20,398 nt of DNA from an uncultured bacterium (GCA_963977015.1 CAXBMO010000046.1:1-20398); one strand, 5' to 3'; counted from the first letter of the stretch, positions 2,597 to 20,398 are shown. Program-made: numbers and translations. The notes: generated by a model from the sequence alone, not told the origin.

Positions 2597-3127
2597 TCAG
2601 GACGCTTTCGGAATCTCCAGAATCGGGTCAATCCATTCTTTGGCAATGCGCTTGCCCAAAGATTGGGTTCGCTCGATCACGAGAGAAGGACGATTTTCCT
2701 GATCGAATGCCTGAATCAGCCCGATCGAGTCGAGGAACCAGCCCGCGCGGCCGTAAATGCCTTTGAATTCGCCGGATTGATCGACCTTGAGGACAAAAGG
2801 CGTCCCTTTGTCGCATCCGAACAGGGGAGAGCTTTCGCGGGTCGTATGAAACTGGATGGAGTTGATGTGCTTGCCGCTTCGGCCGGTGATTCCGATCAAT
2901 TTGTCGCGTTCACCAAGGCGGTATTGAATCCGGTTTCCGCCGACTCCGCCGACGAAGGGAAGCAAGCCGGGGGTTTCCGTTCGGTCCATCGTTTCGAGTT
3001 GGAGGCCGTCAATGACGTCGCCGGCATGAATATAGATGGAGGAGAGGCGCGTTCCCTTGGGAATGAGATAGGCTCCGAAGATTTGCCCGCCAGCACCGCC
3101 GGCAAGACGAGTCCTTTTCAGTTTCAT
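2597..3127 (-). CDS. Jacalin-like (beta-prism) lectin domain protein
   Basis: Three-fold repeat typical of jacalins: AGGAGG...IDGLQL, VGGVGG...LIGITGRSG...INSIQFHT, FKGIYGRAGWFLDSIG; ATG at 3127 (TTG 3130 alternative); no signal peptide. Confidence 0.75.
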   Translation of the reverse strand: MKLKRTRLAGGAGGQIFGAYLIPKGTRLSSIYIHAGDVIDGLQLETMDRTETPGLLPFVGGVGGNRIQYRLGERDKLIGITGRSGKHINSIQFHTTRESSPLFGCDKGTPFVLKVDQSGEFKGIYGRAGWFLDSIGLIQAFDQENRPSLVIERTQSLGKRIAKEWIDPILEIPKAS

Positions 3128-3295
3128 CAATGAATTGGGTTAGTGGTCTTTTGGATTTGGGCGTGTCAGGGGGATGAGTCGTTAAATTTAACTAATTAAA
3201 GATACCTCGCAAGATTGATATTCAATTTTTCTTAAATTTGACAAATCGGTGGATTCCTTGAGCAAATCCGGAACTCGAGTGTCCATTGTCACCCA

Positions 3296-8744: not shown

Positions 8745-9959
8745 ATGCTGGAGGAAGCCGAAGCGCGATCGCGCATTCTTGAAGCCACTTCACTGGGAGA
8801 GATCGAGGACATTGCCCTGGGCGAAGCTCTCGGGAGATTTTCCGCCCGCGACATCCTCGCCACCACCGCGCTCCCCGGCTTCGACAATTCTCAAATGGAT
8901 GGCTATGCCGTTCGCGCCGCCGAAGCACAGAAGGACGCCGAATTGACGCTCGTTGGCGAGCAACCCGCCGGCCCGCGAATCCCGCTCACCGTCAACCCAG
9001 GCGAAGCCGTCCGAATTTTCACCGGAGCCCCCATGCCAGCCGGGGCCGATGCGGTCGTCATGCAGGAAGACGTCGATCGGATCGATGAAACCCGCATTCG
9101 CATCAACGAGTCGGCCGAACCCGGAGAATTTGTCCGCCGCGAAGGTTCGGACCTCTGTGCGGGCCAGAAAATCCTTTGTCAAGGCGACCGCCTCAATCCC
9201 GCCCGGATTGGTGTTCTTGCCTCGCAGGGGCTGGCCCAGATCCCGGTCAGAAAACAGCCGCGCTGCGCCATCGTTACCACCGGCGACGAACTCGTCGCTC
9301 CGGGAACCGAGCTCGCCGAAGGTTCCATCTACAACAGCAATGGTCCCATGCTCTCCGGTTTGGTGCGGCAATTCGGCGCAGGTGAGGTCACCGTCTTTCA
9401 CGCGCCCGATCAACCGGAAACGCTGAAGTCCATACTCGAGCAGGCGATTCAAGCCAGCGACATTTGCCTCATCGCCGGCGGAGTTTCGGTTGGCGAACAC
9501 GATCACGTCAAAGATCAGCTCGCCGCGCTCGACGTTTCCGGCGGATTCTGGCGCGTCCGCATCAAACCCGGCAAGCCGCTCTTTTTCGGTCAGAAAGCCG
9601 GGAAACTCGTGTTCGGCCTTCCCGGCAATCCCGTTTCCGCCTACATCACCTTCTTGCTCTTTGCCCTCCCCGTCCTCCGCAAATGGCAGGGAATGACGGT
9701 TTCCGCCGACGCTCCTCCCCTTCCGCGGGTCACCGCAAAACTCGAAGGCGACGCCATCAACGATCGCGGGGATCGCCCCCATTATCTGCGCGGCTGGCTG
9801 GACCTGGACGCCCTCACCTTCCGCCCGCTCGGCCTCCAGCAATCCCACGCCCTCTTCGCCCTCAGCCGCACCAACGCCCTCGTTCGCGTCGATCCCCAGC
9901 AAACTCTCCGCGCCGGAGATACCGCCCGCTGCTTCCTCGTCGCAGAAACCCTCAGCTAA
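8745..9959 (+). CDS. moeA: Molybdopterin molybdotransferase MoeA (gephyrin-like Glp)
   Basis: FDNSQMDGYAV, RIFTGAPMP-GADAVVMQE, TTGDEL, GGVSVG, IKPGKP, GLPGNPVS motifs. Confidence 0.96.
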   Translation: MLEEAEARSRILEATSLGEIEDIALGEALGRFSARDILATTALPGFDNSQMDGYAVRAAEAQKDAELTLVGEQPAGPRIPLTVNPGEAVRIFTGAPMPAGADAVVMQEDVDRIDETRIRINESAEPGEFVRREGSDLCAGQKILCQGDRLNPARIGVLASQGLAQIPVRKQPRCAIVTTGDELVAPGTELAEGSIYNSNGPMLSGLVRQFGAGEVTVFHAPDQPETLKSILEQAIQASDICLIAGGVSVGEHDHVKDQLAALDVSGGFWRVRIKPGKPLFFGQKAGKLVFGLPGNPVSAYITFLLFALPVLRKWQGMTVSADAPPLPRVTAKLEGDAINDRGDRPHYLRGWLDLDALTFRPLGLQQSHALFALSRTNALVRVDPQQTLRAGDTARCFLVAETLS

Positions 9960-10014
9960 GCGTGAAAAACACTTGCAGGGTGATCGTGATAAGCCATTTT
10001 ACCGGCCCGTTTCT

Positions 10015-10086
10015 GCACGGATAGCTCAGCGGTAGAGCATCTGGTTTACACCCAGGCGGTCGGGGGTTCAAATCCCTCTCCGTGCA
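10015..10086 (+). tRNA. tRNA-Val (anticodon TAC), CCA not encoded
   Basis: Acceptor stem GCACGGA/TCCGTGC plus discriminator A; D arm GCTC-AGCGGTA-GAGC; anticodon arm TCTGG-TT TAC AC-CCAGG; T arm GGGGG-TTCAAAT-CCCTC. Confidence 0.96.
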
Positions 10087-10247
10087 CGTTTTTTTCTCTG
10101 GGGCAACCACCGCATCTCAACGGGTTGACGGCTCTCGAGTCTACAAGGCCTCCACCAACATTCGGGGACGGCTGTTTTTGCGCCCAAGGCAATTCCACAA
10201 GGGGGCAGACGTTGGAGCGATGAAGAGCATCCTCTAACGCCCAAACG

Positions 10248-10279
10248 AAAAAAGGCGATCTGAAATTCAGACCGCCTTT
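10248..10279 (-). terminator. Rho-independent terminator of the left YRG gene pair
   Basis: Minus strand reads AAAGGCGGTCTGAATTTCAGATCGCC-TTTTTT: long stem followed by a U6 tract, about 36 nt downstream of the stop at 10316. Confidence 0.8.
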
Positions 10280-10315
10280 GATCACGTCGAGTTTGCTGAT
10301 CGAGTCAGCGTTTCT

Positions 10316-10519
10316 TTAGCGATTGAAGGTTCCGGTTTCGCCGCGGAAGGTGACTTCCACATCCTTTTTTTGATGAGGCTTGGTGTTGGTTTCGCCGGCC
10401 GCGCCGCGATATTGGACGAGTTGGCTGCCTTGTTGCTGTTGCATCTGCTCGGAGCGTCCATTTTTGAGTTCGGACAGTTCGGCTGAGGCTCCGCGGTAGG
10501 TGATCGTTGAATTTTTCAT
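10316..10519 (-). CDS. YRG-motif mini-protein, copy A (67 aa)
   Basis: ATG..TAA frame conserved in 4 copies; many differences between copies are synonymous in this frame; motifs ITYRG, VQYRG, VTFRG. Confidence 0.8.
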   Translation of the reverse strand: MKNSTITYRGASAELSELKNGRSEQMQQQQGSQLVQYRGAAGETNTKPHQKKDVEVTFRGETGTFNR

Positions 10520-10576
10520 TGTCGTATTTTGGTTGGAATGAGATTGAATTGGTTGGTTGAGCGAATCAGTTTTTCC

Positions 10577-10786
10577 TTAGCGATTGAAGGTTCCGGTTTC
10601 GCCCCGGAAAGTGATTTCCACATCCTTTTTCTGATGAGCCTTGGTGTTGGTTTCACCGGTTGCGCCACGGTATTGGACGAGTTGACTGCCTTGTTGCTGT
10701 TGCATCTGCATCTGCTCGGAGCGTCCATTTTTGAGTTCGGACAGTTCGGCTGAGGCTCCGCGGTAGGTGATCGTTGAATTTTTCAT
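10577..10786 (-). CDS. YRG-motif mini-protein, copy B (69 aa; in-frame QM duplication)
   Basis: ATG at 10786 is equivalent to the start in the other copies; 6-nt in-frame duplication (EQMQMQ); the longer start at 10879 in the ORF track lies inside the candidate promoter. Confidence 0.8.
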   Translation of the reverse strand: MKNSTITYRGASAELSELKNGRSEQMQMQQQQGSQLVQYRGATGETNTKAHQKKDVEITFRGETGTFNR

Positions 10787-10872
10787 TGTCGTAATTGGTT
10801 TGGATTGAATTGAATTGGTTGGTTTCAGCTTTCGCTGAGGGAAACCTGTTTGTTTCGTTGAAAGAGTATTAA

Positions 10873-10888
10873 GCGCCAATCATGCCAA
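10873..10888 (-). promoter_or_regulatory. Candidate sigma-54 (-24/-12) promoter of the YRG gene pair
   Basis: Minus strand TTGGCATGATTGGCGC: GG (10886-10885), exactly 10 nt, GC (10874-10873); TGGCATG resembles the TGGCACG consensus, but the TT before GC is absent. Confidence 0.5.
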
Positions 10889-11004
10889 CTTTTTCTCACC
10901 CGGCATTAACTTACTCATTACCAGGGATTTATGGAGTTTAAAAAATTACGCTTCGGTATTTCCCGAAATTTCAGCCCCCTTTCTGATCACCGCTCTTCCA
11001 CCCG

Positions 11005-11043
11005 GTGGTAACTCATTTACCACAGACCTGAACCCGAGTTACC
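11005..11043. promoter_or_regulatory. Inverted repeats, possible activator (bEBP) binding sites
   Basis: GTGGTAA-CTCAT-TTACCAC (11005-11023) and GGTAACTC (11007-11014) / GAGTTACC (11036-11043). Confidence 0.4.
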
Positions 11044-11206
11044 TTCTGAGACCTGGAATGCATTGCGAAACGAAAAGGCGTAGGTCTTCCTCAAAAATTA
11101 TTGGGAACAAAAATGTAACGCCCGCGCACTCCAAAGCCAATTCCATGATTGCAGTATCCTTAATCGTTCAAGTTTTAATGGATATTTTCAGTTGAAATAA
11201 GCGAAC

Positions 11207-11227
11207 ACTCGATTACATGTATCGAGT
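11207..11227. promoter_or_regulatory. Palindromic operator-like site upstream of the RM operon
   Basis: ACTCGAT-TACATGT-ATCGAGT, just downstream of a TTGAAA -35-like hexamer at 11192-11197. Confidence 0.45.
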
Positions 11228-11401
11228 ATCGCCAGTACTGGAGAAAGCCACACGACCAAAAAGTTGGGGCTTTCGGCAGTAACCGATCACCCCAAACATC
11301 TATCCAGCCGAAGCCGGAGTCAGACGTCGCAACTCATGATGATGGCAAGTGGCTGGATTTTCAAATCCTAAAACTAATTAACCAACCCTGATTATTACAT
11401 C

Positions 11402-12121
11402 ATGAGTACAAGTATTGCTATTCAGCAAACTCCATCCGCTCAGGTGCGCCAAGCACCCAGAATGAGCATCAATTCTCTCGCGAAGTATTGGGACACCAGC
11501 AGTCCACTTAAACGTCTGACCATTCTTCGGGGGCAAAAGTTCCCGAAGGATTACATCGTGTCGTGGTACAAAGACTCAATGGACCCGATTTCGGACTTTT
11601 TGACGGATCCAAACCATGACACTTCCATTATCACAGGTGCAATTTCCGTAATTCGGGCGAAGCCCGCTTTGAACGACCATCAGGAATCGGTCAAAGACGT
11701 TAATGTCCAAGCCCTGAGGCTGTTCCTTAGCGGAATTCAAAATTTCCCTCTCGGAGATTATGATTTTCAGCGGAAGGACAACCAGGCTCCCCACTCCACC
11801 ATCAATGGCCTGTCGATTAGCGTTCGACCGGAGTTTGAGTTGATCTACCGCGGAACCGGGAATCGTCTTGGCGCTCTGAAATTGTACTTCAGCAAATCGG
11901 ATCCCCTGTCCGTGGATGCTGGGGCCATGGTTGCAATGGTCGTTAAGCAGCACACAGAACGCCACAATGCCACCCAAGAACGGGTAAATCATCGACATTG
12001 CTTCGTGATTGACGTATTCGCGAACAACATCCATGTGGGGCCGCAGGCGACCGCCCAGCGTCGAAATAGCCTCACCGCTGCATGCGACGAAATTGTTGCC
12101 CGTTGGCCCAGCATCACGTAA
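11402..12121 (+). CDS. Hypothetical protein (239 aa), possibly a degenerate PD-(D/E)xK-like fold
   Basis: Long ORF with ATG after an A/C-rich leader, 16 nt upstream of the next gene; beta-strand pattern ISVRPE...GALKLYFSK...CFVIDV; fold call is inference. Confidence 0.8.
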   Translation: MSTSIAIQQTPSAQVRQAPRMSINSLAKYWDTSSPLKRLTILRGQKFPKDYIVSWYKDSMDPISDFLTDPNHDTSIITGAISVIRAKPALNDHQESVKDVNVQALRLFLSGIQNFPLGDYDFQRKDNQAPHSTINGLSISVRPEFELIYRGTGNRLGALKLYFSKSDPLSVDAGAMVAMVVKQHTERHNATQERVNHRHCFVIDVFANNIHVGPQATAQRRNSLTAACDEIVARWPSIT

Positions 12122-12137
12122 TCCTCACACGCCAAAA

Positions 12138-12713
12138 ATGCAAACCACGCCACTCTCCCAGCTCCTGGAATCGATTCGTGCCGGACACCAGTTCCGGTCC
12201 CGGATCGATCCGGAGCCGGAGGGTGAGTATCGAATCGTGCAAGGCAAGGACATCAACCGCAGCCGGAAAATCGTGGTGGACGAATTGACCCGCGTTGAGC
12301 AGCGCCACATCAAAGACCCTGAACGGAACTGCCTCCGGCCTGGCGAAGTGCTTTTCATGGCGCGGGGAACACGTTTAATGGCCACGGTCGTGGACGAAAC
12401 GATTCCTCCTCAAACTGTGGCGGTTTCCAGTTTTCATGTTTTGGTCCCTAACACTGACCTCCTTTTGCCTGAGTATTTGGTCTGGGCAATCAATGACGAA
12501 ACTGCCCAATCGTGGCTCGTAAGCAATATCAGCGGAACCACCATTCCCATGATCACTCAGAAAACGCTCCTTTCGCTCCCCCTTCCGACTCCTTCCATCC
12601 AATCGCAGCATCGTTTTGTTCAACTGCTTCGCCTTGCGGAGAAGGAACGTGAATTGGCCGAGCAACTTTACAAGACACGCCAACAAATGCTGAGAGGCAT
12701 CCTCCAATCTTAA
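12138..12713 (+). CDS. Half-size type I RM specificity-subunit-like protein (single TRD, about 191 aa)
   Basis: ATG 12138 (MQTTPLSQL); Methylase_S-like pattern IVQGKDI, LRPGEVLFMARG, LLPEYLVWAIN, SGTTIPMI, LPLPTPSIQSQ-coiled coil; directly upstream of hsdM. Confidence 0.8.
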   Translation: MQTTPLSQLLESIRAGHQFRSRIDPEPEGEYRIVQGKDINRSRKIVVDELTRVEQRHIKDPERNCLRPGEVLFMARGTRLMATVVDETIPPQTVAVSSFHVLVPNTDLLLPEYLVWAINDETAQSWLVSNISGTTIPMITQKTLLSLPLPTPSIQSQHRFVQLLRLAEKERELAEQLYKTRQQMLRGILQS

Positions 12714-12731
12714 TCGAAATTTCCCTTCAAC

Positions 12732-14318
12732 ATGAGCAAAGCCAAATCCGCTCCCACTAAACGCGGTAAGTCTGCGCGAAAGACTACCAAGCGCAAAAAT
12801 GCGGGCGCAAAAACTACCGCGCCAACCACCCAAGACCGAAAGGACGAAATCAATCGCGTCGCTTGGGCCGCTTGCGACACGTTTCGCGGCGTGATGGACT
12901 CGTCCACCTACAAAGACTACGTCCTAACGACATTGTTTATCAAATATCTGAGCGATGTGCGTCGCCAGAAAATTGAAGAGCTAACCGAACAGTTTGGCGA
13001 TGACAAAGCAATGATTCAACGCCGCCTCAGTCGTGAACGTTTTCTCATTCCGGCGAAGGCCGATTTTTACCACCTCTTCGAACACCGCAACGCCGAGAAC
13101 ATTGGCGCACTCATCAATGGCGCCCTTGACGAAATTGAGGACGAGAATAAAGCAAAGCTCGAAGGCGTTTTCCGGAAAATCGACTTCAACTCCGAAGTTC
13201 ACTTTGGCGAAACGCGCGACCGGAACCGCCGCCTAAAACACTTGCTTGAGGATTTCTATCCGCTCGATCTACGGCCTGCCTCAGTTGGTGATGCCGATAT
13301 TATCGGAGATGTTTACGAATTCTTGATCGCGCGCTTTGCAAGCGACGCCGGCAAGAAAGGCGGCGAGTTCTATACGCCCGGCGAAGTTGCCACTCTCTTG
13401 GCGCGCCTCCTGGATCCAAAACCGGGCGACCGCATCTGTGATCCGGCGTGTGGTTCTGGTTCCCTGCTTATCAAAGTCGCCAAGGAAGTCGGCAGCGAAA
13501 ACTTTTCAGCTTACGGGCAGGAGAACAACAATCAAACTTACGCACTCGCGCGGATGAATCTCTTTCTTCACGGGTTGGATAGTGCGCGAATCGAATGGTG
13601 CGACACGTTGAATTCTCCCAAACTGGTTGATAACAAAGGCCGCCTCATCAAATTCGACGTTCTTGTCGCCAATCCGCCGTTTTCGCTCGACAAATGGGGA
13701 GCGGAACATGCTGCCTCGGACCGGCATGCTCGCTTTCACCGCGGTATTCCGCCCAAGAGCAAGGGCGATTTTGCGTTCATCAGTCACATGGTCGAAACTG
13801 CGGTTGAGGGTTCTGGAAAAGTCGGTGTCATTGTGCCACACGGCGTGCTTTTTCGTGGCGGCTCGGAGGGAAAAATTCGGGAGTCCTTTGTTGAGGAAAA
13901 CTTGATCGAAGCTGTCATCGGCCTGCCGCCAAACCTCTTCTTTGGGACGGGAATTCCCGCCGCAATTCTGCTCTTCAACAAAGGAAAAACCACCAGTGAT
14001 GTACTTTTCATTGATGCTAGCGGAAAGGACTGTTTTGAGCAGGGAACGAACCAGAACCGGCTCCGCGAGGTGGATATCGAGCGAATTGTGACGGCGTTTC
14101 GCGGTTTTTCGGATATCGAGAAGTTTGCGGCACGGATTCCGGTGGAGACGATTCGGGAGAATGAATACAATCTGAACATACCGCGGTATGTCGATACGTT
14201 TGAGGAGGAAGCCCCAGTAGATTTGAACGCAGTGCAGGTGGAGATCGATCGGCTAGAGGGCGAGTTGGTTGAGGTAAGGAGGGAAATGCGAAAATACTTG
14301 GAGGAGCTAGGAGTATGA
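12732..14318 (+). CDS. hsdM: Type I RM methyltransferase subunit M (N6-adenine)
   Basis: WAACDTFRG, GEFYTP, motif I DPACGSGSLL, motif IV NPPF, PHGVLFRG, YNLNIPRYVDTF. Confidence 0.97.
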   Translation: MSKAKSAPTKRGKSARKTTKRKNAGAKTTAPTTQDRKDEINRVAWAACDTFRGVMDSSTYKDYVLTTLFIKYLSDVRRQKIEELTEQFGDDKAMIQRRLSRERFLIPAKADFYHLFEHRNAENIGALINGALDEIEDENKAKLEGVFRKIDFNSEVHFGETRDRNRRLKHLLEDFYPLDLRPASVGDADIIGDVYEFLIARFASDAGKKGGEFYTPGEVATLLARLLDPKPGDRICDPACGSGSLLIKVAKEVGSENFSAYGQENNNQTYALARMNLFLHGLDSARIEWCDTLNSPKLVDNKGRLIKFDVLVANPPFSLDKWGAEHAASDRHARFHRGIPPKSKGDFAFISHMVETAVEGSGKVGVIVPHGVLFRGGSEGKIRESFVEENLIEAVIGLPPNLFFGTGIPAAILLFNKGKTTSDVLFIDASGKDCFEQGTNQNRLREVDIERIVTAFRGFSDIEKFAARIPVETIRENEYNLNIPRYVDTFEEEAPVDLNAVQVEIDRLEGELVEVRREMRKYLEELGV

Positions 14319-15553
14319 ACTGGGAGGAGGTCAAGATTGGCGAGATTGCCACGCTCATAAATGGTCGGGGTTTCAAGCCACATGAGTGGTCTTCAACAGG
14401 ATTGCCCATAATAAGAATTCAGAATCTAAACGGATCTAGTGAATTCAATTTCTACACAGGAGAGTTTGCTGAAAAGATCAGAGTTCGCCAAGGTGATCTA
14501 CTCTTTGCTTGGTCTGGCAGCCGCGGCTCATCGTTTGGCCCACATTTTTGGAAACGTTCCGAAAATGGACTCCTAAATTACCACATTTGGCGGATCGAAT
14601 GTTCGGAACGGGTTGATAAGCTGTTTTTTTTCGCTGTCTTACAACAACTGACATTGCAGATTGAGAGTGATGCTCATGGCGCTGCCGGATTGGTTCATAC
14701 CCAGAAGAATATCGTAGAGAAATGGAAAGTGCGATTGCCATCGATGCCGGTTCAACGCAAAATCGCAGCCATACTCACCACGATTGATCGGAAAATCGAA
14801 ATCCAAGAGAAACTCATTGAGGCGAGAACTGAGCGTCAACGCGGATTGCGGCAACAGTTACTAAGCGGCGCAACTCGCTTTCCAGAATACCGCAATAAGC
14901 CTTGGGTAGAGCGTCGATTGGAGGATGTGGCCCAAAATGAATCGCAGCGGAACGGTAGCCGGTTCGGGACCGACAGGCTCTATGGAGTAACCAAAACGGA
15001 AGGAGTGATACCGATGCGCGAACACGTGAAAGGCGAGAAGTTCGAGCGCTGCAAGTTGGTTGAGCCGAATTGGTTTGCCTACAATCCAATGCGTCTCAAC
15101 ATCGGTTCGATCGCGCGTTGGCAAGGTGAACGTGAGGTGATGGTGAGTGGCGATTACGTTGTGTTTTCCTGCGACGAACGACTGCTTGCGCCTGAATATC
15201 TCGATCATCTTCGCCGGACGCGATTGTGGGAACATTTCGTGAATGCTTCTGGAAATGGGAGTGTGCGAGTTCGGATCTATTTCAAGGATCTTGGGCGAAT
15301 AAGATTTTCGTTACCTCCGATAGAAGAACAACGCCGCATCGCTCAATTACTCGACACCGGCGATCGCGAAATCGTCCTCCTCAAGCGTCAACTGCATGCT
15401 CTGCGGGAGCAAAAACGCGGACTGATGCAAAAGCTACTGACTGGTGAATGGAAAGTCAGCGTGGATGAAGAGGCCGACGTGCCAAAGCCTCGCAAGAAGG
15501 CGAAAAAGAAGGACAAGGCATCTCGGAAACAGACGAGAAGGCGAAAGAAATGA
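14315..15553 (+). CDS. hsdS: Type I RM specificity subunit S (two TRDs)
   Basis: W..V.IGEI start, central LPSMPVQRKIA...GLRQQLL and distal LPPIEEQRRIA...KRGLMQKLLTG conserved regions; ATGA overlaps with hsdM and hsdR. Confidence 0.95.
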   Translation: MNWEEVKIGEIATLINGRGFKPHEWSSTGLPIIRIQNLNGSSEFNFYTGEFAEKIRVRQGDLLFAWSGSRGSSFGPHFWKRSENGLLNYHIWRIECSERVDKLFFFAVLQQLTLQIESDAHGAAGLVHTQKNIVEKWKVRLPSMPVQRKIAAILTTIDRKIEIQEKLIEARTERQRGLRQQLLSGATRFPEYRNKPWVERRLEDVAQNESQRNGSRFGTDRLYGVTKTEGVIPMREHVKGEKFERCKLVEPNWFAYNPMRLNIGSIARWQGEREVMVSGDYVVFSCDERLLAPEYLDHLRRTRLWEHFVNASGNGSVRVRIYFKDLGRIRFSLPPIEEQRRIAQLLDTGDREIVLLKRQLHALREQKRGLMQKLLTGEWKVSVDEEADVPKPRKKAKKKDKASRKQTRRRKK

Positions 15554-18500
15554 CCTCCTACTTCGACAGCGCCGAAAACGGTGAACGCCCCGATTCCGAG
15601 GAACGGCTGATTTCTCAAATTCCGGCGATCGAGCTGCTGATGAAAATGGGGTTCACCTATCTCCGACCGGAGGAGGCGAATGAATTACGCGGAGGCAGAA
15701 CATCGCAGGTCATTCTCACCTCAATTCTGCGGCAGCAACTGGAAAAGCTGAACCGCATTTCCTACCGCGGAAACGAATATCCGTTTGATGATACCGCAAT
15801 CGATGGCGCGATTGCCGCAATCACCAATCTAGCTTACGAAAGCTTGCTGCTTACAAGTGAGCAGATTTATGATTTGCTCTCTCTGGGGAAGAGCTTTCTC
15901 CAAACTGTTGAGGGCGACCGGCGTAGCTTTGATATCGGTTTTATCGACTGGGAGAACCCGGAAAATAACGCATTTCATGTCACGGAGGAATTCATCGTAG
16001 AGCGGAGTGGCTCCAAGGACAAATACAGGCCGGATATCGTGCTTTTCGTCAATGGAATCCCCCTCGCAGTTATTGAGTGCAAGCCTCCTGGCCACGTCGA
16101 AGAAGGAATCGATGATCACCTGCTTAAGCAGCAGGAAGACGGAATCACCAAGCTCTATCAGTATTGTCAGATTCTTGGAGCCATCGACAAAGAATCCGGG
16201 ATGTATGGCACGCTGGGGACGAAGAAGAAGTTTTGGAGTCAGTGGAAGGCCGAGGTCAATCAATCAGCCTTGCGCAAAATCGTCAATGCTCATTTGCCGG
16301 ATGAAGATCGAGTGAGGCTTTTTTGGAGACGTGCAGAATCTGCCCGGGTCGCCGAAGATCCTGCGGAACGGCTCCCAACTGCCCAAGACCGGTTCCTTTT
16401 TGCCCTTTTTCGGCCAGAGGAGCTTCTGAAGTTGACCCGCCTGTTTGTCCTCTATGACGCCGGAGAGAAGAAGATTGCGAGATACCAGCAATACCGCGCG
16501 GTTCGCAATGCTCTGGAGCGAGTGAAAACTCGAACGGACGAAGGCGTGCGTCGAGGTGGAGTGGTTTGGCACACCCAAGGCAGTGGGAAGTCGCTCACGA
16601 TGGTGATGTTAGGTAAATCGATTGCACTCGATCCGGACCTTGCGGGATCTCGCCTGATTCTGGTGACGGATCGCGTGGAGTTGGATAAGCAGATTCGCGA
16701 TACGTTTCGCTACTGTGGCTATGACCCGGTTCTCGCCAAGGATGGTCAGGATCTCCGACAGCTCATCGAAGGCGGCAAACGGACGGTGGTTACCACGGTG
16801 ATCAACAAGTTTGAACGCGCGGTAAAGGGGCGCAAAAACCTGGATGAAGACGAGAACCTCTTTGTGTTGGTCGATGAAGGGCACCGGACGAACTTCGGTT
16901 CCTTTCATGCCCTCATGCGCAAAGCCCTGCCCCGTGCCTGTTACCTGGGTTTTACCGGCACGCCGGTGATGAAGCAGGATCGGAACAATGTGAAGGTCTT
17001 TGGAGATTTCATCGATAAATACACGATTGATGAAGCGGTGGAAGACGAGGCAGTGGTTCGCCTGCTTTACGAAGGTCGCCACATCGAGCAGGAGGTCGAT
17101 CAGAGGACTCTGGACAAGTGGTTTGAACGCCTGATGCGCGATCGTTCAGAGAGAGAGAAAGCCGATTTTAAGCGGAAGTTTGGCAACGCCGATCATGTCA
17201 ATCGATCTGAACAGAGGCTGGAGGCGATTGCCTGGGACATCAGCGAACATTTTGCAAATCGGTTTCAGAGCACAGGAGCCAAGGGGCAACTGGTGGCCCC
17301 ACGAAAGGACGTGGCCCTTCGCTATCATCATATGTTGAACCAGATTGGTATGGTTAGCAGCGAGGTTCTCATTTCAGGGCCAGACAACCGGGAGGATGAG
17401 GAGGATTGTGATGAGGCGGCAGTGCCAACGGTTCGCAAATTTTGGAAGGAAATGATGGATCGCTTCCGAACGGAGGAGCGCTACAACGAAAGTTTGATCA
17501 ACCGGTTCAAAGGGCGCAAAGACCCCGAGATTATTATCGTGGTAAGCAAGCTTCTGACCGGTTTTGACGCGCCTAACAACACCGTTCTTTACATCGACAA
17601 GCCGCTGAAAGGGCACACGCTGCTCCAAGCTATCGCGAGGGTGAATCGACGGCGGGAAGGAAAAGACTTTGGCTACATCATCGACTACTACGGTGTTTTG
17701 GGGGATTTGAACCGAGCGCTATCCAGCTACGAAGCTTTGGCGGAGTTTGAGGAGGACGATTTGGCCCGCGCCCTGACCCCGATTGAAGAGGAGACGCAGA
17801 ATCTTCCCCAGGCCCACGCCGATCTTTGGGCAGTCTTCGCGGAAGTGAAGAACCGGAAGGACGACGAGCAATTTGCGCAGTGCCTTCAGTTTCAGGATCG
17901 GCGCGATTTGTTCTACGAGCGGCTGAATCGATTCTCCCGGTTGTTTGAAATGGCCATGTCGTCGATGAAGTTTCTCGAAAAGACACCGGAGGCGACCGTG
18001 CAGCGTTACCGTGAGGATCTGCGCTACTTCCAGAAGCTCAGGACGAGGATTCGCAAGCGTTACGCAGAAGAAGTTGACTACCAGGAATACGAAAAGCGAA
18101 TTCAGAAGCTCATCGATCGCTATGTCGGAGCAGGAGAAGTTACCCAGGTAACTGAGTTGGTGGATATCTTCGACAAAGAAAAATTCGATGCCGAGGTCGA
18201 ACAGTTAGAAGGCAAAGCTTCGCGTGCTGACACCATTGCCCACCGCACAGAGCGAACTATTCGTGAAAAGTGGGACGAAGACCCTGTCTTCTACGACCGC
18301 TTCTCAAAGATCCTCAAGAAAGTGATCGCCGACTTCAGGGCGCAGCGTATCACCGATGCTGAATACCTTGAGAAAGTCACCGACGTGCTGCATACGGTTC
18401 GAAATCGAGGTGAAGACGAAACGCCCGAGCCCTTGAAACATCGTGAGGAAGCTCGCGCGTTTTACGGGCACGCGTTGGATACGCTCGAATCCGCCGGGAA

Positions 18501-18729
18501 CCGCAAAAATTGGTGCGCGGAGATTGGCCTGGCTGTGGACGAGATCGTAGTCGGCAATCTGGTTGTCGATTGGACAGATAAGGATGAAATCAAGAACCGC
18601 ATTCGAAATGAAATTGAAGACTACCTTCTCAAGTTCGCCAAGGAGCAGGACATAGAGTTTGGCTTCGATGAGATTGACCGATTTCTCGATGATGTCCTAC
18701 CTACCGCGGAGACGCGCTATCACCGATGA
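15550..18729 (+). CDS. hsdR: Type I RM restriction subunit R (HsdR)
   Basis: Nuclease RPDIVLFVNGIPLAVIECK; Walker A HTQGSGKS; DEGHR; GFTGTP; LLTGFDAP; QAIARVNR. Confidence 0.97.
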   Translation: MTSYFDSAENGERPDSEERLISQIPAIELLMKMGFTYLRPEEANELRGGRTSQVILTSILRQQLEKLNRISYRGNEYPFDDTAIDGAIAAITNLAYESLLLTSEQIYDLLSLGKSFLQTVEGDRRSFDIGFIDWENPENNAFHVTEEFIVERSGSKDKYRPDIVLFVNGIPLAVIECKPPGHVEEGIDDHLLKQQEDGITKLYQYCQILGAIDKESGMYGTLGTKKKFWSQWKAEVNQSALRKIVNAHLPDEDRVRLFWRRAESARVAEDPAERLPTAQDRFLFALFRPEELLKLTRLFVLYDAGEKKIARYQQYRAVRNALERVKTRTDEGVRRGGVVWHTQGSGKSLTMVMLGKSIALDPDLAGSRLILVTDRVELDKQIRDTFRYCGYDPVLAKDGQDLRQLIEGGKRTVVTTVINKFERAVKGRKNLDEDENLFVLVDEGHRTNFGSFHALMRKALPRACYLGFTGTPVMKQDRNNVKVFGDFIDKYTIDEAVEDEAVVRLLYEGRHIEQEVDQRTLDKWFERLMRDRSEREKADFKRKFGNADHVNRSEQRLEAIAWDISEHFANRFQSTGAKGQLVAPRKDVALRYHHMLNQIGMVSSEVLISGPDNREDEEDCDEAAVPTVRKFWKEMMDRFRTEERYNESLINRFKGRKDPEIIIVVSKLLTGFDAPNNTVLYIDKPLKGHTLLQAIARVNRRREGKDFGYIIDYYGVLGDLNRALSSYEALAEFEEDDLARALTPIEEETQNLPQAHADLWAVFAEVKNRKDDEQFAQCLQFQDRRDLFYERLNRFSRLFEMAMSSMKFLEKTPEATVQRYREDLRYFQKLRTRIRKRYAEEVDYQEYEKRIQKLIDRYVGAGEVTQVTELVDIFDKEKFDAEVEQLEGKASRADTIAHRTERTIREKWDEDPVFYDRFSKILKKVIADFRAQRITDAEYLEKVTDVLHTVRNRGEDETPEPLKHREEARAFYGHALDTLESAGNRKNWCAEIGLAVDEIVVGNLVVDWTDKDEIKNRIRNEIEDYLLKFAKEQDIEFGFDEIDRFLDDVLPTAETRYHR

Positions 18730-19430
18730 GACACGAGATCGACTACGGCTCCGGCAAGATTGAATTCGAGCTGCGGTATCGCGCTGCGGATTCGATCAGC
18801 TTCACCGTAAAACCGAGCGGGGAAGTCGAAGTGATTGCGCCAAAGAAAAAGCCGCTTGAGGCGATTCAGGACCGCGTCTTGAAGAGAGCGAAATGGATTC
18901 GCAAGCAACAACGTGAGTTTGAGACCTACGAAAACAGGGCCGATGACAGACGATATGTTAGCGGAGAATCCTGTCGTTACCTTGGCCGGCAATACCGGCT
19001 GCGGGTGGTCGAGCAAGAACCGCTTGGAGTCGCGATGTCCCGCCCTCACCTTCGAGTTTCGGTGCGTAATCGGCACGATTCGGAGGAAATACAACGGCGC
19101 CTCGAATCATGGCTTCGTGAACGCGCCAAGATTCGATTCTCAGAGCGCTTTGAGCGATGCCTCGAACAAGTTCGCCGCCATGGCATCACGAGCGAAGGCT
19201 TCAAGCTTCGCCGGATGGCTAAGCGCTGGGGATCTTGCTCCAGGGCTGGTGAGATTCTACTGAATCCCGAATTGATCAAAGCGCCCGTCGATTGCATTGA
19301 CTACGTGATTCTTCACGAACTCTGCCACCTCAAGGAATTCGAACACTCTCCTGCATTCTACCGGCTCCAGGATCGAGTCTGTCCAGACTGGGTTCGCCGA
19401 AAACACAGGCTTGAACGGGTGGAACTCTGA
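18726..19430 (+). CDS. YgjP/DUF45 (M48/SprT-like) zinc-dependent hydrolase associated with type I RM
   Basis: GE...YLG, RWGSCS, IDYVILHELCHL..HS..F (HExxH); ATGA overlap with hsdR. Confidence 0.9.
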   Translation: MRHEIDYGSGKIEFELRYRAADSISFTVKPSGEVEVIAPKKKPLEAIQDRVLKRAKWIRKQQREFETYENRADDRRYVSGESCRYLGRQYRLRVVEQEPLGVAMSRPHLRVSVRNRHDSEEIQRRLESWLRERAKIRFSERFERCLEQVRRHGITSEGFKLRRMAKRWGSCSRAGEILLNPELIKAPVDCIDYVILHELCHLKEFEHSPAFYRLQDRVCPDWVRRKHRLERVEL

Positions 19431-19436
19431 TCGCAA

Positions 19437-19850
19437 CTACGACTTTCGTGCGTTTGGGCAGGGTTTCTCCTCCATCCAATCAACCCGATGAAACCCACAT
19501 TCGAAAATCTCGTGCAGCGCATAGTGTTCGGATCCAACCCAGGCTCCGCCGCGCTCTGAGATCGGAGCATTGCAGTGAGGGCACCGATACTCGTTCAGCT
19601 CTTCCGTCGCCAACTCCAACTCAGTTTGCAGCTCCTTGAGCGCTTCTCCGCTTGCTAGTTTTTCAAGCGTAGCCCGCGGGTGCTTTTCGTAAATGTCGGG
19701 TAGTACCACGCGGAGAACTTCGATGGCGATGTCTTCAGCCTTCTTTCTGAACGTCGTAATGGCAATTTTGTCAGCAAGTGGCGGGCTGAAGTTCAGAATG
19801 TCGATTTCGAAAGCGGCTGATGCTCCTAGGATAAGAAGCGATCTTCGAGC
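19437..19850 (-). pseudogene. 5'-truncated gene remnant with a C-terminal Cys (Zn-ribbon-like) domain
   Basis: Frame stays open and protein-like upstream of GTG 19709 (…AAFEIDILNFSPPLADKIAITTFRKKAEDIAIEVLRVVLPDIYE…) with no ATG/GTG/TTG until it runs into the repeat at 19851; C-terminus CPHC…ECG…PCP. Confidence 0.6.
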
Positions 19851-19853
19851 ACG

Positions 19854-19885
19854 AAAAAAGGCGATCTGAAATTCAGACCGCCTTT
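19854..19885 (-). terminator. Rho-independent terminator of the right YRG gene pair
   Basis: Identical to 10248-10279. Confidence 0.8.
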
Positions 19886-19926
19886 GATCACGTCGAGTTT
19901 GCTGACCGAGTCAGCGATTCCCTAGC

Positions 19927-20130
19927 TTAGCGATTGAAGGTTCCGGTTTCGCCGCGGAAGGTGACTTCCACGTCCTTTTTCTGATGAGGCTTGGTGTTGG
20001 TTTCACCGGCCGCGCCGCGGTATTGGACGAGTTGGCTGCCTTGTTGCTGTTGCAACTGCTCGGAGCGTCCATTTTTGAGTTCGGACAGTTCGGCTGAGGC
20101 TCCGCGGTAGGTGATCGTTGAATTTTTCAT
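19927..20130 (-). CDS. YRG-motif mini-protein, copy C (67 aa)
   Basis: Differs from copy A by one residue (M to L) plus synonymous changes. Confidence 0.8.
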   Translation of the reverse strand: MKNSTITYRGASAELSELKNGRSEQLQQQQGSQLVQYRGAAGETNTKPHQKKDVEVTFRGETGTFNR

Positions 20131-20187
20131 TGTCGTATTTTGGTTGGAATGGGATTGAATTGGTTGATTGAGCGAATCAGAGGTTCG

Positions 20188-20391
20188 TTAGCGATTGAAG
20201 GTTCCGGTTTCGCCGCGGAAGGTGATTTCCACGTCCTTTTTCTGATGAGGCTTGGTGTTGGTTTCGCCGGTTGCGCCGCGGTATTGGACGAGTTGGCTGC
20301 CTTGTTGCTGTTGCAACTGCTCGGAGCGTCCATTTTTGAGTTCGGACAGTTCGGCTGAGGCTCCGCGGTAGGTGATCGTTGAATTTTTCAT
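20188..20391 (-). CDS. YRG-motif mini-protein, copy D (67 aa)
   Basis: Near-identical to A-C; 261 bp from copy C. Confidence 0.8.
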   Translation of the reverse strand: MKNSTITYRGASAELSELKNGRSEQLQQQQGSQLVQYRGATGETNTKPHQKKDVEITFRGETGTFNR

Positions 20392-20398
20392 TGTCGTA

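Follow-up and report, generated by a model that had tools for sequence, protein, structure and literature searches.

The window analysed here is a complete contig of 20,398 bp (C46) from the 6.9-Mb, 51-contig genome of an uncultured bacterium, which we call G000. It carries four small open reading frames (ORFs), arranged on the minus strand as two tandem pairs, each of which encodes a protein with three (Y/F)RG motifs. We found that these ORFs are genuine coding genes subject to purifying selection, and that their products are related to the YRG-repeat family DUF4278 (Pfam PF14105). Upstream of the genes, a sigma-54-type element is combined with a palindrome; both are conserved at homologous loci, and the combination is specific to these genes and to the gene for P-II. 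Judging from their control regions, the small proteins are probably nitrogen-status regulators.

The explanation that we favour, and that we consider fairly probable as a whole, runs as follows. A two-gene operon would be transcribed from a sigma-54 (RpoN) promoter, activated by an enhancer-binding protein sitting on the palindrome GTGGTAA-N5-TTACCAC about 120 nt upstream; the transcript would run from a leader with a 5'-proximal hairpin through both genes to a single intrinsic terminator. The small proteins would be produced along with P-II according to nitrogen status, and three hairpins with Tyr/Phe-Arg-Gly tips, joined by a helix and a linker, would dock onto a nitrogen-assimilation protein. 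The most specific candidate for docking would be the cytoplasmic face of Amt channels, approached in the manner of the P-II/GlnK T-loop; a second candidate might be glutamine synthetase (GS), the target of the cyanobacterial relative IF17. The four copies would have arisen by tandem duplication, followed by duplication of the whole operon as direct repeats of about 0.8 kb around a type I restriction-modification (RM) island.

Four small genes under purifying selection

Operon 1 comprises a promoter-proximal gene, copy 2 (10577..10786, 69 aa), and a promoter-distal gene, copy 1 (10316..10519, 67 aa); in operon 2, the proximal gene is copy 4 (20188..20391, 67 aa) and the distal gene copy 3 (19927..20130, 67 aa). 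The original prediction had described four such ORFs in two tandem pairs with a 261-bp period, and the ORF list has them exactly there; to this we add their strand, which is minus throughout. Successive starts lie 261, 9350 and 261 nt apart according to the repeat finder, and the contig ends 7 nt upstream of the ATG of copy 4. Over 78 aligned columns, made up of 7 leader nucleotides and the opening 71 nt of the coding sequence, the four copies do not differ. Three (Y/F)RG motifs occur in every copy, and the 6-nt in-frame indel noted earlier could be located: it is a duplication of GCAGAT, present in copy 2 only, which adds Gln-Met. At the diagnostic codons, copies 1 and 3 share Ala-Ala and Glu-Val, and copies 2 and 4 share Ala-Thr and Glu-Ile; this sharing suggests that a tandem duplication came first and that the pair was then copied as a unit. 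The encoded proteins have a mass of 7.5 kDa, are basic (isoelectric point, pI, 9.6) and very hydrophilic (grand average of hydropathy, GRAVY, -1.23), and contain neither cysteine nor a double-glycine site.

A fifth copy, 64% identical, is found elsewhere in the genome (C4:438641-438841). In a genome of the same genus (G003), a tandem array of at least three copies with a 251-bp period spans the end of contig C300 and the start of contig C25 (loci L063 and L007). This array has one enhancer-and-promoter module in front, and its neighbourhood differs from that in the window. Since the assembly is broken inside the array both in G003 and in the window, copy numbers may be underestimated in both. 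The gene amplification that had been proposed is thus borne out by the copy count, with five copies in G000 and at least three tandem copies in the relative.

Nei-Gojobori ratios of non-synonymous to synonymous substitution rates (dN/dS) range from 0.07 to 0.29 among the four copies and from 0.07 to 0.48 when these are compared with seven homologues from G000 and three related genomes; the analysis included 55 pairs, and the ranges cover the estimable ones, dS being saturated in 3 of the 55. Two adjacent tandem copies in the same-genus genome differ by 14 synonymous changes and 0 non-synonymous ones. These values confirm the earlier suggestion of selection on the peptide. The accompanying expectation that gene callers were likely to miss the ORFs did not hold: both forms of the protein are already present in the protein database as called genes from this same 20398-bp contig (P0001 and P0002). 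Among public sequencing runs, the stretch is found only in marine-metagenome contigs.

A sigma-54-type promoter, an enhancer-like palindrome and a terminator

On the minus strand, a sigma-54-type promoter element, TTGGCATGATTGGCGCTTA (10870..10888), lies 84 nt upstream of the ATG of copy 2, with its GG (10886-10885) and GC (10874-10873) ten bases apart. About 117 nt further upstream of the -24 element stands a perfect enhancer-like palindrome, GTGGTAA-N5-TTACCAC (11005..11023), and the stretch between them is AT-rich. Upstream DNA is available for 11 distinct homologous loci, every one of which has a -24/-12 element of the type TTGGCAC-N5-xTGC, the motif starting 67-100 nt before the ATG; the chance expectation of TTGGC-N9-GC in this genome is 0.006 per 40-nt window. 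The upstream palindrome is likewise present at all 11 loci, including the promoter of the relative's tandem array.

No sigma-54 element is found in the 57-nt spacer between the genes of a pair, which argues that each pair forms one operon, and a simple sigma-70 scan of the minus strand returned nothing between the genes and position 11045. One intrinsic terminator ends each pair, as the original prediction had claimed. That of operon 1 (10251..10279, minus strand) is a 13-bp stem followed by a T run; that of operon 2 (19857..19885, minus strand) is its twin, placed by the 9606-nt offset of repeat D3 and lying in a 76-nt repeat (19851-19926) that is 95% identical.

The genome encodes RpoN (PF04552 at C3:356304-356777, 203 bits) and eight strong enhancer-binding proteins (PF00158), with receiver and helix-turn-helix parts. 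In a locus from a Roseibacillus metagenome-assembled genome (MAG), an enhancer-binding-protein gene adjoins the mini-protein gene and is convergent with it (L044:3273-4805, minus strand). The best match of its product in G000, at 57% identity, is encoded at C11:61493-63142; we regard this protein as a candidate activator and a lead only, and its neighbours provide no nitrogen clue.

Two short stem-loops (10856-10841 and 10838-10825; together 10825..10856, minus strand) are predicted in the 5' leader, with a folding energy of -10.7 kcal/mol and a z-score of -3.26. A hairpin of 4-7 bp a few nucleotides after the predicted transcription start is a recurrent feature, seen there in 10 loci besides the window operon: stems of 4-5 bp belong to the minimum-energy fold in 10 of 10 leaders, and they vary between loci in a compensatory manner (GAAAC/GUUUC, CAGCG/CGCUG, GAGAC/GUCUC, GAACG/CGUUC). 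Taken singly, the z-scores of the leader hairpins are modest (+0.4 to -3.3). The promoter of the relative's array is followed by a 7-bp leader hairpin, as seen by eye. We read this element as a possible mRNA-stabilising 5' stem-loop. Beyond the stem-loop, the leader is C/A-rich and has no obvious Shine-Dalgarno sequence.

A control module shared with the P-II gene

Palindrome-like sites were defined as having at most two mismatches in the 12 half-site positions. G000 contains 122 such sites, only three of which have a strong sigma-54 element 30-220 nt downstream: those of the window operon, of the fifth copy on C4 and of a module at C1:125424/125515. The last is located 57 nt before the gene for a 117-aa P-II protein (PF00543, E 1.3e-34; gene region C1:125423-125925). 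G000 has no other canonical P-II gene; this one, of the glnB/glnK type, is monocistronic and predicted to be sigma-54-driven. A fourth perfect palindrome forms the start of contig C40, into which operon 2 probably continues. Four relatives contain seven occurrences of the 19-mer at one mismatch or fewer, six before DUF4278-like genes and one before P-II; at two mismatches, a reversed-pattern control identifies palindrome hits as noise. The P-II promoter keeps both elements in the same-genus genome G002 and, more weakly, in G001; in G010, a genome of the same family, the P-II palindrome is degenerate, with three mismatches.

The best-scoring sigma-54 element of the genome precedes a gene for an Amt ammonium transporter (PF00909) and is without this palindrome. 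Other top sigma-54 hits precede components of ATP-binding cassette (ABC) transport, as identified only by reading of the sequences. In the genome-wide scan of G000, no GS gene carries the palindrome.

As the module is shared with P-II only, the small proteins are most likely made together with P-II, depending on nitrogen status. We conclude with moderate confidence that the mini-proteins belong to a very small regulon with P-II and would respond to nitrogen status, the confidence being only moderate because one partner gene, P-II, carries the conclusion. Such a compact regulon, with one palindrome and two kinds of target gene, would be of interest in marine Verrucomicrobiota, a group with few studies of nitrogen regulation.

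We also surveyed the surroundings of amt genes in 23 genomes of the order. Pairing of amtB with glnK is common in other bacteria. None of the 34 loci covered (L058-L062, L079-L107) has a P-II/glnK gene within about 1.5 kb; G000 itself has 4-5 amt genes and one P-II.

A verrucomicrobial branch of the DUF4278 family

PF14105 is the only Pfam family that the window copies match at E<=0.01 (E 0.0014 for copy 1). In an alignment of close relatives (A1), 17 of 17 members match PF14105 at this threshold, with a best E-value of 1.8e-6, and none matches another Pfam family. A profile search of a 5.8-billion-protein collection yielded 1812 candidates, 123 of them at E<=1; of the 120 relatives listed, 23 have a precomputed PF14105 match, and the NCBI name of one of them (P0017, 46% identical to copy 1) is 'DUF4278 domain-containing protein'. 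Since close relatives are PF14105 members, the window copies may be counted as members by transitive homology. We therefore place the small proteins in the YRG-repeat family DUF4278, as a narrow branch of it that is confined to Verrucomicrobiota. The link to this family, raised as a lead in the original prediction, thus stands at the level of the family, while the window copies themselves remain under the Pfam cut-off in hmmscan.

That the branch is narrow is seen from several collections. Only 34 proteins are found at E<=0.001 in a profile search of 1.84 billion representatives. The source names of the relatives listed are all Verrucomicrobiota or Verrucomicrobiales MAGs, and the five loci from a species-genome collection come from Verrucomicrobiota, Verrucomicrobiales or Roseibacillus MAGs. 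Among related genomes, a match is found in 5 of 41 (G000 counted), or in 3 of 32 when counted by genus. In the ESM Atlas, the nearest neighbour is a Verrucomicrobiota cluster (0.91), and ranks 2 and 3 are DUF4278 clusters (0.86 and 0.85).

Among 34 sequences, no columns are invariant except Y8 R9 G10, Y37 R38 G39 and R59 G60. At its edge, the profile search recovers typical DUF4278 proteins (P0133-P0135), in which the hydrophobic-x-YRG motif occurs three to five times. Pfam describes DUF4278 by a repeated YRG motif in proteins of about 50-140 aa, with which the small proteins fit. A scan of the small proteins against NCBIfam gave no family, and scans against PADLOC and PHROGs gave nothing meaningful.

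DUF4278 is an abundant family of small proteins in marine cyanobacteria, tied to nitrogen through glutamine riboswitches; we know of no function for the domain itself, and a full-text search gave six papers in which it is mentioned. A glutamine riboswitch occupies the 5' untranslated region of gifB in 28 of the 32 cyanobacterial genomes that have gifB. The proteins described here resemble cyanobacterial DUF4278 proteins and IF17 in being small, in consisting of repeated hydrophobic-x-YRG motifs, in matching PF14105 and in having a link with nitrogen control. They differ in coming from Verrucomicrobiota, in scoring under the cut-off (window copies) and in having exactly three motifs and a Gln-rich helix.

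According to passages in two reports, DUF4278 is the Pfam family used to find homologues of gifB/IF17 (PMC11288750, PMC6212724). The portion of PMC6316151 that deals with IF17 places the GS-binding residues in its C-terminal IF7-like part, the DUF4278 moiety being dispensable for binding and mainly stabilising. The small proteins are without this IF7-like GS-binding part: they stop seven residues after the third motif, which leaves no room for the C-terminal part of about 65 aa attributed to IF17 in the same portion of that source (PMC6316151), a judgement made by length against the published description.

Marine picocyanobacterial mini-proteins that consist of DUF4278 only are placed downstream of glutamine riboswitches and NtcA sites in passages of three reports (PMC6212724, PMC6316151, PMC11288750). 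Close parallels are such mini-proteins as Prochlorococcus PMM1846 (the Yfr6 locus), which are likewise of about 7 kDa, DUF4278-only, often multi-copy and nitrogen-tied in expression (PMC6212724, PMC6316151). The devices of control differ: glnA or Downstream-peptide riboswitches and NtcA in Prochlorococcus and other picocyanobacteria, a sigma-54 promoter and an enhancer palindrome here. That a non-cyanobacterial branch should be tied to nitrogen by a different device would be independent evidence for a role of DUF4278 in nitrogen signalling.

The family itself is known. New here are the wiring by sigma-54 and enhancer in common with P-II, and two features taken up below, the architecture of hairpin tips and the likeness to the T-loop. 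Full-text literature searches, with cyanobacterial supplementary tables outside their scope, returned no description of the P-II-shared wiring, of the hairpin tips or of the T-loop likeness. A search that combined Verrucomicrobia, sigma-54, nitrogen and PII gave nothing on this system among the matches listed, and the matches listed for 'YRG motif' concern plant AP2/ERF factors or miR172; a full-text search for PF14105 found no paper.

Predicted structure and candidate partners

AlphaFold2, run on the 34-sequence alignment, gives a model with a mean predicted local distance difference test (pLDDT) of 70 and a predicted template modelling score (pTM) of 0.26. Strands are predicted at residues 5-8/11-14, 33-37/40-44 and 53-58/61-66 and a helix at residues 15-29. 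The model thus consists of three beta-hairpins, with turns at R9-G10, R38-G39 and R59-G60, and one Gln-rich helix, with no confident global packing. A search of the PDB by sequence profile gave no match (best E 0.53) and Foldseek found 0 matches of the model in the PDB at E<=0.001; at a pTM of 0.26, fold searches are uninformative. With its three invariant tips set on flexible connectors, the model suggests that the small protein binds other proteins multivalently. The small protein had been pictured before as a multivalent, largely disordered peptide: multivalent YRG motifs fit the three-hairpin model, whereas 'largely disordered' does not agree with a pLDDT of 70, though the pTM is low.

The T-loop of the P-II protein of G000 reads E-I-Y46-R47-G48-S49-E-Y51. 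The small proteins are like P-II/GlnK in having Tyr-Arg-Gly-(Ala/Ser) at a predicted beta-hairpin tip, in a control of the sigma-54 type and in an enhancer shared with the P-II gene. A single chain of the small protein has three tips, as against three T-loops in a P-II trimer. Other traits set the two apart: the small protein is without a nucleotide- or 2-oxoglutarate-sensing body, and most of its motifs have no equivalent of Tyr51. In Escherichia coli, the glnK-amtB operon depends on sigma-54 and NtrC. In the GlnK-AmtB complex, as passages of one report describe it, the T-loop's tip enters the cytoplasmic pore exit of AmtB, and Arg47 blocks conduction (PMC4274968).

For a predicted complex, the mini-protein was combined with two chains of the sigma-54-driven Amt, covering residues ~62-474, for which 20 orthologues were aligned. 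With two of the three channel subunits modelled, the interaction prediction score from aligned errors (ipSAE) is 0.59 (0.57, 0.63 and 0.59 in separate runs), whereas the best of three controls scored 0.00. The contacts of the runs agree by at least 39%, and the pLDDT of the partner is at least 59. The mark set for ipSAE is reached by 58 of 80 solved complexes and by 2 of 110 mismatched pairs; for the Amt prediction, the tool itself returned the verdict 'weak support'.

One may tentatively propose that YRG-repeat proteins of DUF4278 mimic the P-II T-loop in a single chain, with three tips that could shut all three pores of an Amt trimer; we hold this specific proposal to be rather doubtful. Alternatively, the small protein could compete with P-II at other receptors or at the enzyme that modifies P-II. 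If true, T-loop mimicry would provide a function for the whole DUF4278 family, and with it for the mini-proteins that riboswitches control in Prochlorococcus and Synechococcus and for the N-terminal half of IF17.

Points against the favoured explanation and alternative explanations

Several observations weigh against the explanation outlined at the outset, that of a nitrogen-responsive sigma-54 operon whose products dock through their YRG tips. As regards the family, copies 1 to 4 score 19.4, 20.8, 19.4 and 20.5 bits against PF14105, for which the gathering cut-off is 25.3, and a six-frame PF14105 search of the genome gives 15.4-18.2 bits. As regards expression, transcription is represented by one metatranscriptome contig of 237 nt, which covers 10286-10517 with 10 differences and is at most a weak hint, because DNA can occur in such libraries. 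An Rfam scan of 9900-11500 (E<=10) detected only tRNA, and no glnA, Downstream-peptide or other riboswitch. The case for nitrogen control stands on one co-regulated gene, P-II. Moreover, cyanobacterial inactivating factors are made under nitrogen excess, while control of the NtrC type usually corresponds to limitation.

Docking meets further difficulties, beginning with the low pTM of the model. The T-loop likeness is confined to YRG(A/S) at the hairpin tip, and the hydrophobic residue stands at -2, not at -1. Homology to P-II (PF00543) was considered and rejected: hhalign gives a probability of 10%, over 22 columns around YRG only, so that the likeness is not one of homology. Only 7 of the 80 solved complexes, but both mismatched pairs that passed, reached a score of 0.60 or under. 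The AmtB score is weak, comes without an interface and was obtained with two of the three subunits in the model; as a solved GlnK-AmtB complex exists, it may reflect likeness or memory rather than binding. Across the 34 amt loci of 23 genomes, a complementary distribution of the small protein and of amt-linked glnK was not seen; as no amt locus adjoins P-II, with or without the mini-protein, the distribution says nothing either way.

The surroundings of the single-copy genes must also be considered. A transglutaminase-like gene immediately precedes the single-copy gene in four genomes, and in two of these a Clp-like AAA+ (ATPases associated with diverse cellular activities) gene lies beyond the transglutaminase-like one. 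In G000 (C4:434137-438392), the genes directly upstream of the fifth copy are those for a 1122-aa Clp-like double-AAA+ protein and a 290-aa transglutaminase-like protein, with GroEL and DnaK following nearby; matching loci are L008/L068, L015 and L045. An ancestral single-copy locus set among proteostasis genes would also fit a stress role.

Such a role would be that of a hydrophilic and in part disordered stress or proteostasis mini-protein, driven by a sigma-54 stress activator and working with chaperones or, by its Gln tract, as a substrate of the transglutaminase-like enzyme. The neighbours just described speak for it, as do a GRAVY of -1.23 and a QQQQG tract conserved within the close subfamily; nevertheless, we judge it unlikely. 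The gene's own enhancer and promoter start after the stop codon of the transglutaminase gene, seven other loci, tandem arrays among them, are without these neighbours, and the wider family does not retain the Gln tract; the sole other gene with the same enhancer is that for P-II. This last fact can be reconciled with a second alternative, in which the small protein is an analogue of the GS-inactivating factors, an IF7/IF17-like basic mini-protein that binds and inhibits a glutamine synthetase: the nitrogen-regulon link holds here too. In addition, passages in PMC11288750 and PMC6212724 show DUF4278 in use for finding gifB/IF17 homologues, the protein is small and basic (pI 9.6), and the genome has GSI-, GS-like and GSIII-type genes. 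We give this analogue little credence, however, since the C-terminal IF7-like part by which IF17 binds GS, as far as described in PMC6316151, is absent from the 67-aa proteins, and the palindrome precedes no GS gene. That the DUF4278 part of IF17 is not GS-binding in that account is equally a point against GS as a docking partner in the explanation that we favour.

The remaining alternatives have far lower probability. Near-identical short ORFs in multiple tandem copies, with a gene of the cysteine-protease fold (transglutaminase-like) adjoining the ancestral copy, might recall precursor peptides, encoded in tandem, of a ribosomally synthesised natural product, but conservation resides in three internal motifs and not in a leader/core pattern, no array has modification or export genes beside it, Cys and double-Gly sites are missing, and control is of the nitrogen-type sigma-54 kind; the idea is very improbable. 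Still less probable, and already at odds with the comparative data, is the suggestion of the original prediction that the peptide is an accessory or modulator of the enclosed type I RM system. Physical proximity would argue for it, in this window only. When the seven proteins of the island were compared by tblastn with the 13 fetched loci (10 distinct homologue loci), no match was found; the small protein matches no PADLOC model; the repeats carry operons that are complete in themselves and whose transcription points away from the RM genes, which are inserted between the operon copies; and the GC content of the island is lower.

Direct repeats and the restriction-modification island

The left direct repeat (10245..11045) contains a complete operon, from terminator to enhancer, and is 94% identical to the right one (19851..20398), which is cut by the end of the contig; the compared segments are 10245-10793 and 19851-20398. 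The first 66 nt of contig C40 (C40:1-66) are 97% identical to 10980-11045, palindrome included, after which the sequences diverge. Metagenome contigs from two studies show a diverged copy of 10836-11045 (16-19 differences) followed by C40-like sequence. The identity with C40 and these metagenome contigs together argue that the right repeat most probably runs on into C40, beyond the gap in the assembly. The unit that was duplicated, of about 0.8 kb, probably spans a whole operon, enhancer to terminator.

Between the repeats lies an island of 8.8 kb (11046..19850, plus strand), which is not part of the small-protein system. Pfam and PADLOC identify a complete type I RM system with an extra half-size HsdS and without an integrase; the genes are those for a 239-aa ORF, the half-size HsdS, HsdM, HsdS, HsdR, a YgjP-like metallopeptidase and, on the minus strand, a 90-aa ORF. 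The GC content of the island is 0.48-0.54, compared with 0.55-0.62 to its left. As the arrangement reads, the RM island is an insertion between two operon copies and not a partner of the small proteins. It may have originated from a circular piece with its own copy of the operon, integrated by homologous recombination. In this way, as the window would illustrate, the arrival of a restriction island can leave a regulatory operon duplicated in full.

The 239-aa and 90-aa ORFs, at the island's two ends, have no Pfam, PADLOC or PHROGs match, and PADLOC and PHROGs gave nothing meaningful for the YgjP-like protein. The 239-aa ORF (11402-12121, plus strand) overlaps the start of the half-size HsdS ORF (12009-12713) by 113 nt; the 90-aa ORF (19437-19709, minus strand) encodes a CxxC pair and two further cysteines. 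A tRNA-Val(TAC) gene (10015..10087, plus strand) adjoins the left repeat. The core part of the contig includes genes for a jacalin-like lectin-domain protein (2597-3130, minus strand) and for MoeA, a molybdopterin molybdenumtransferase (8745-9959, plus strand), which are ordinary genes, unrelated to the small proteins.

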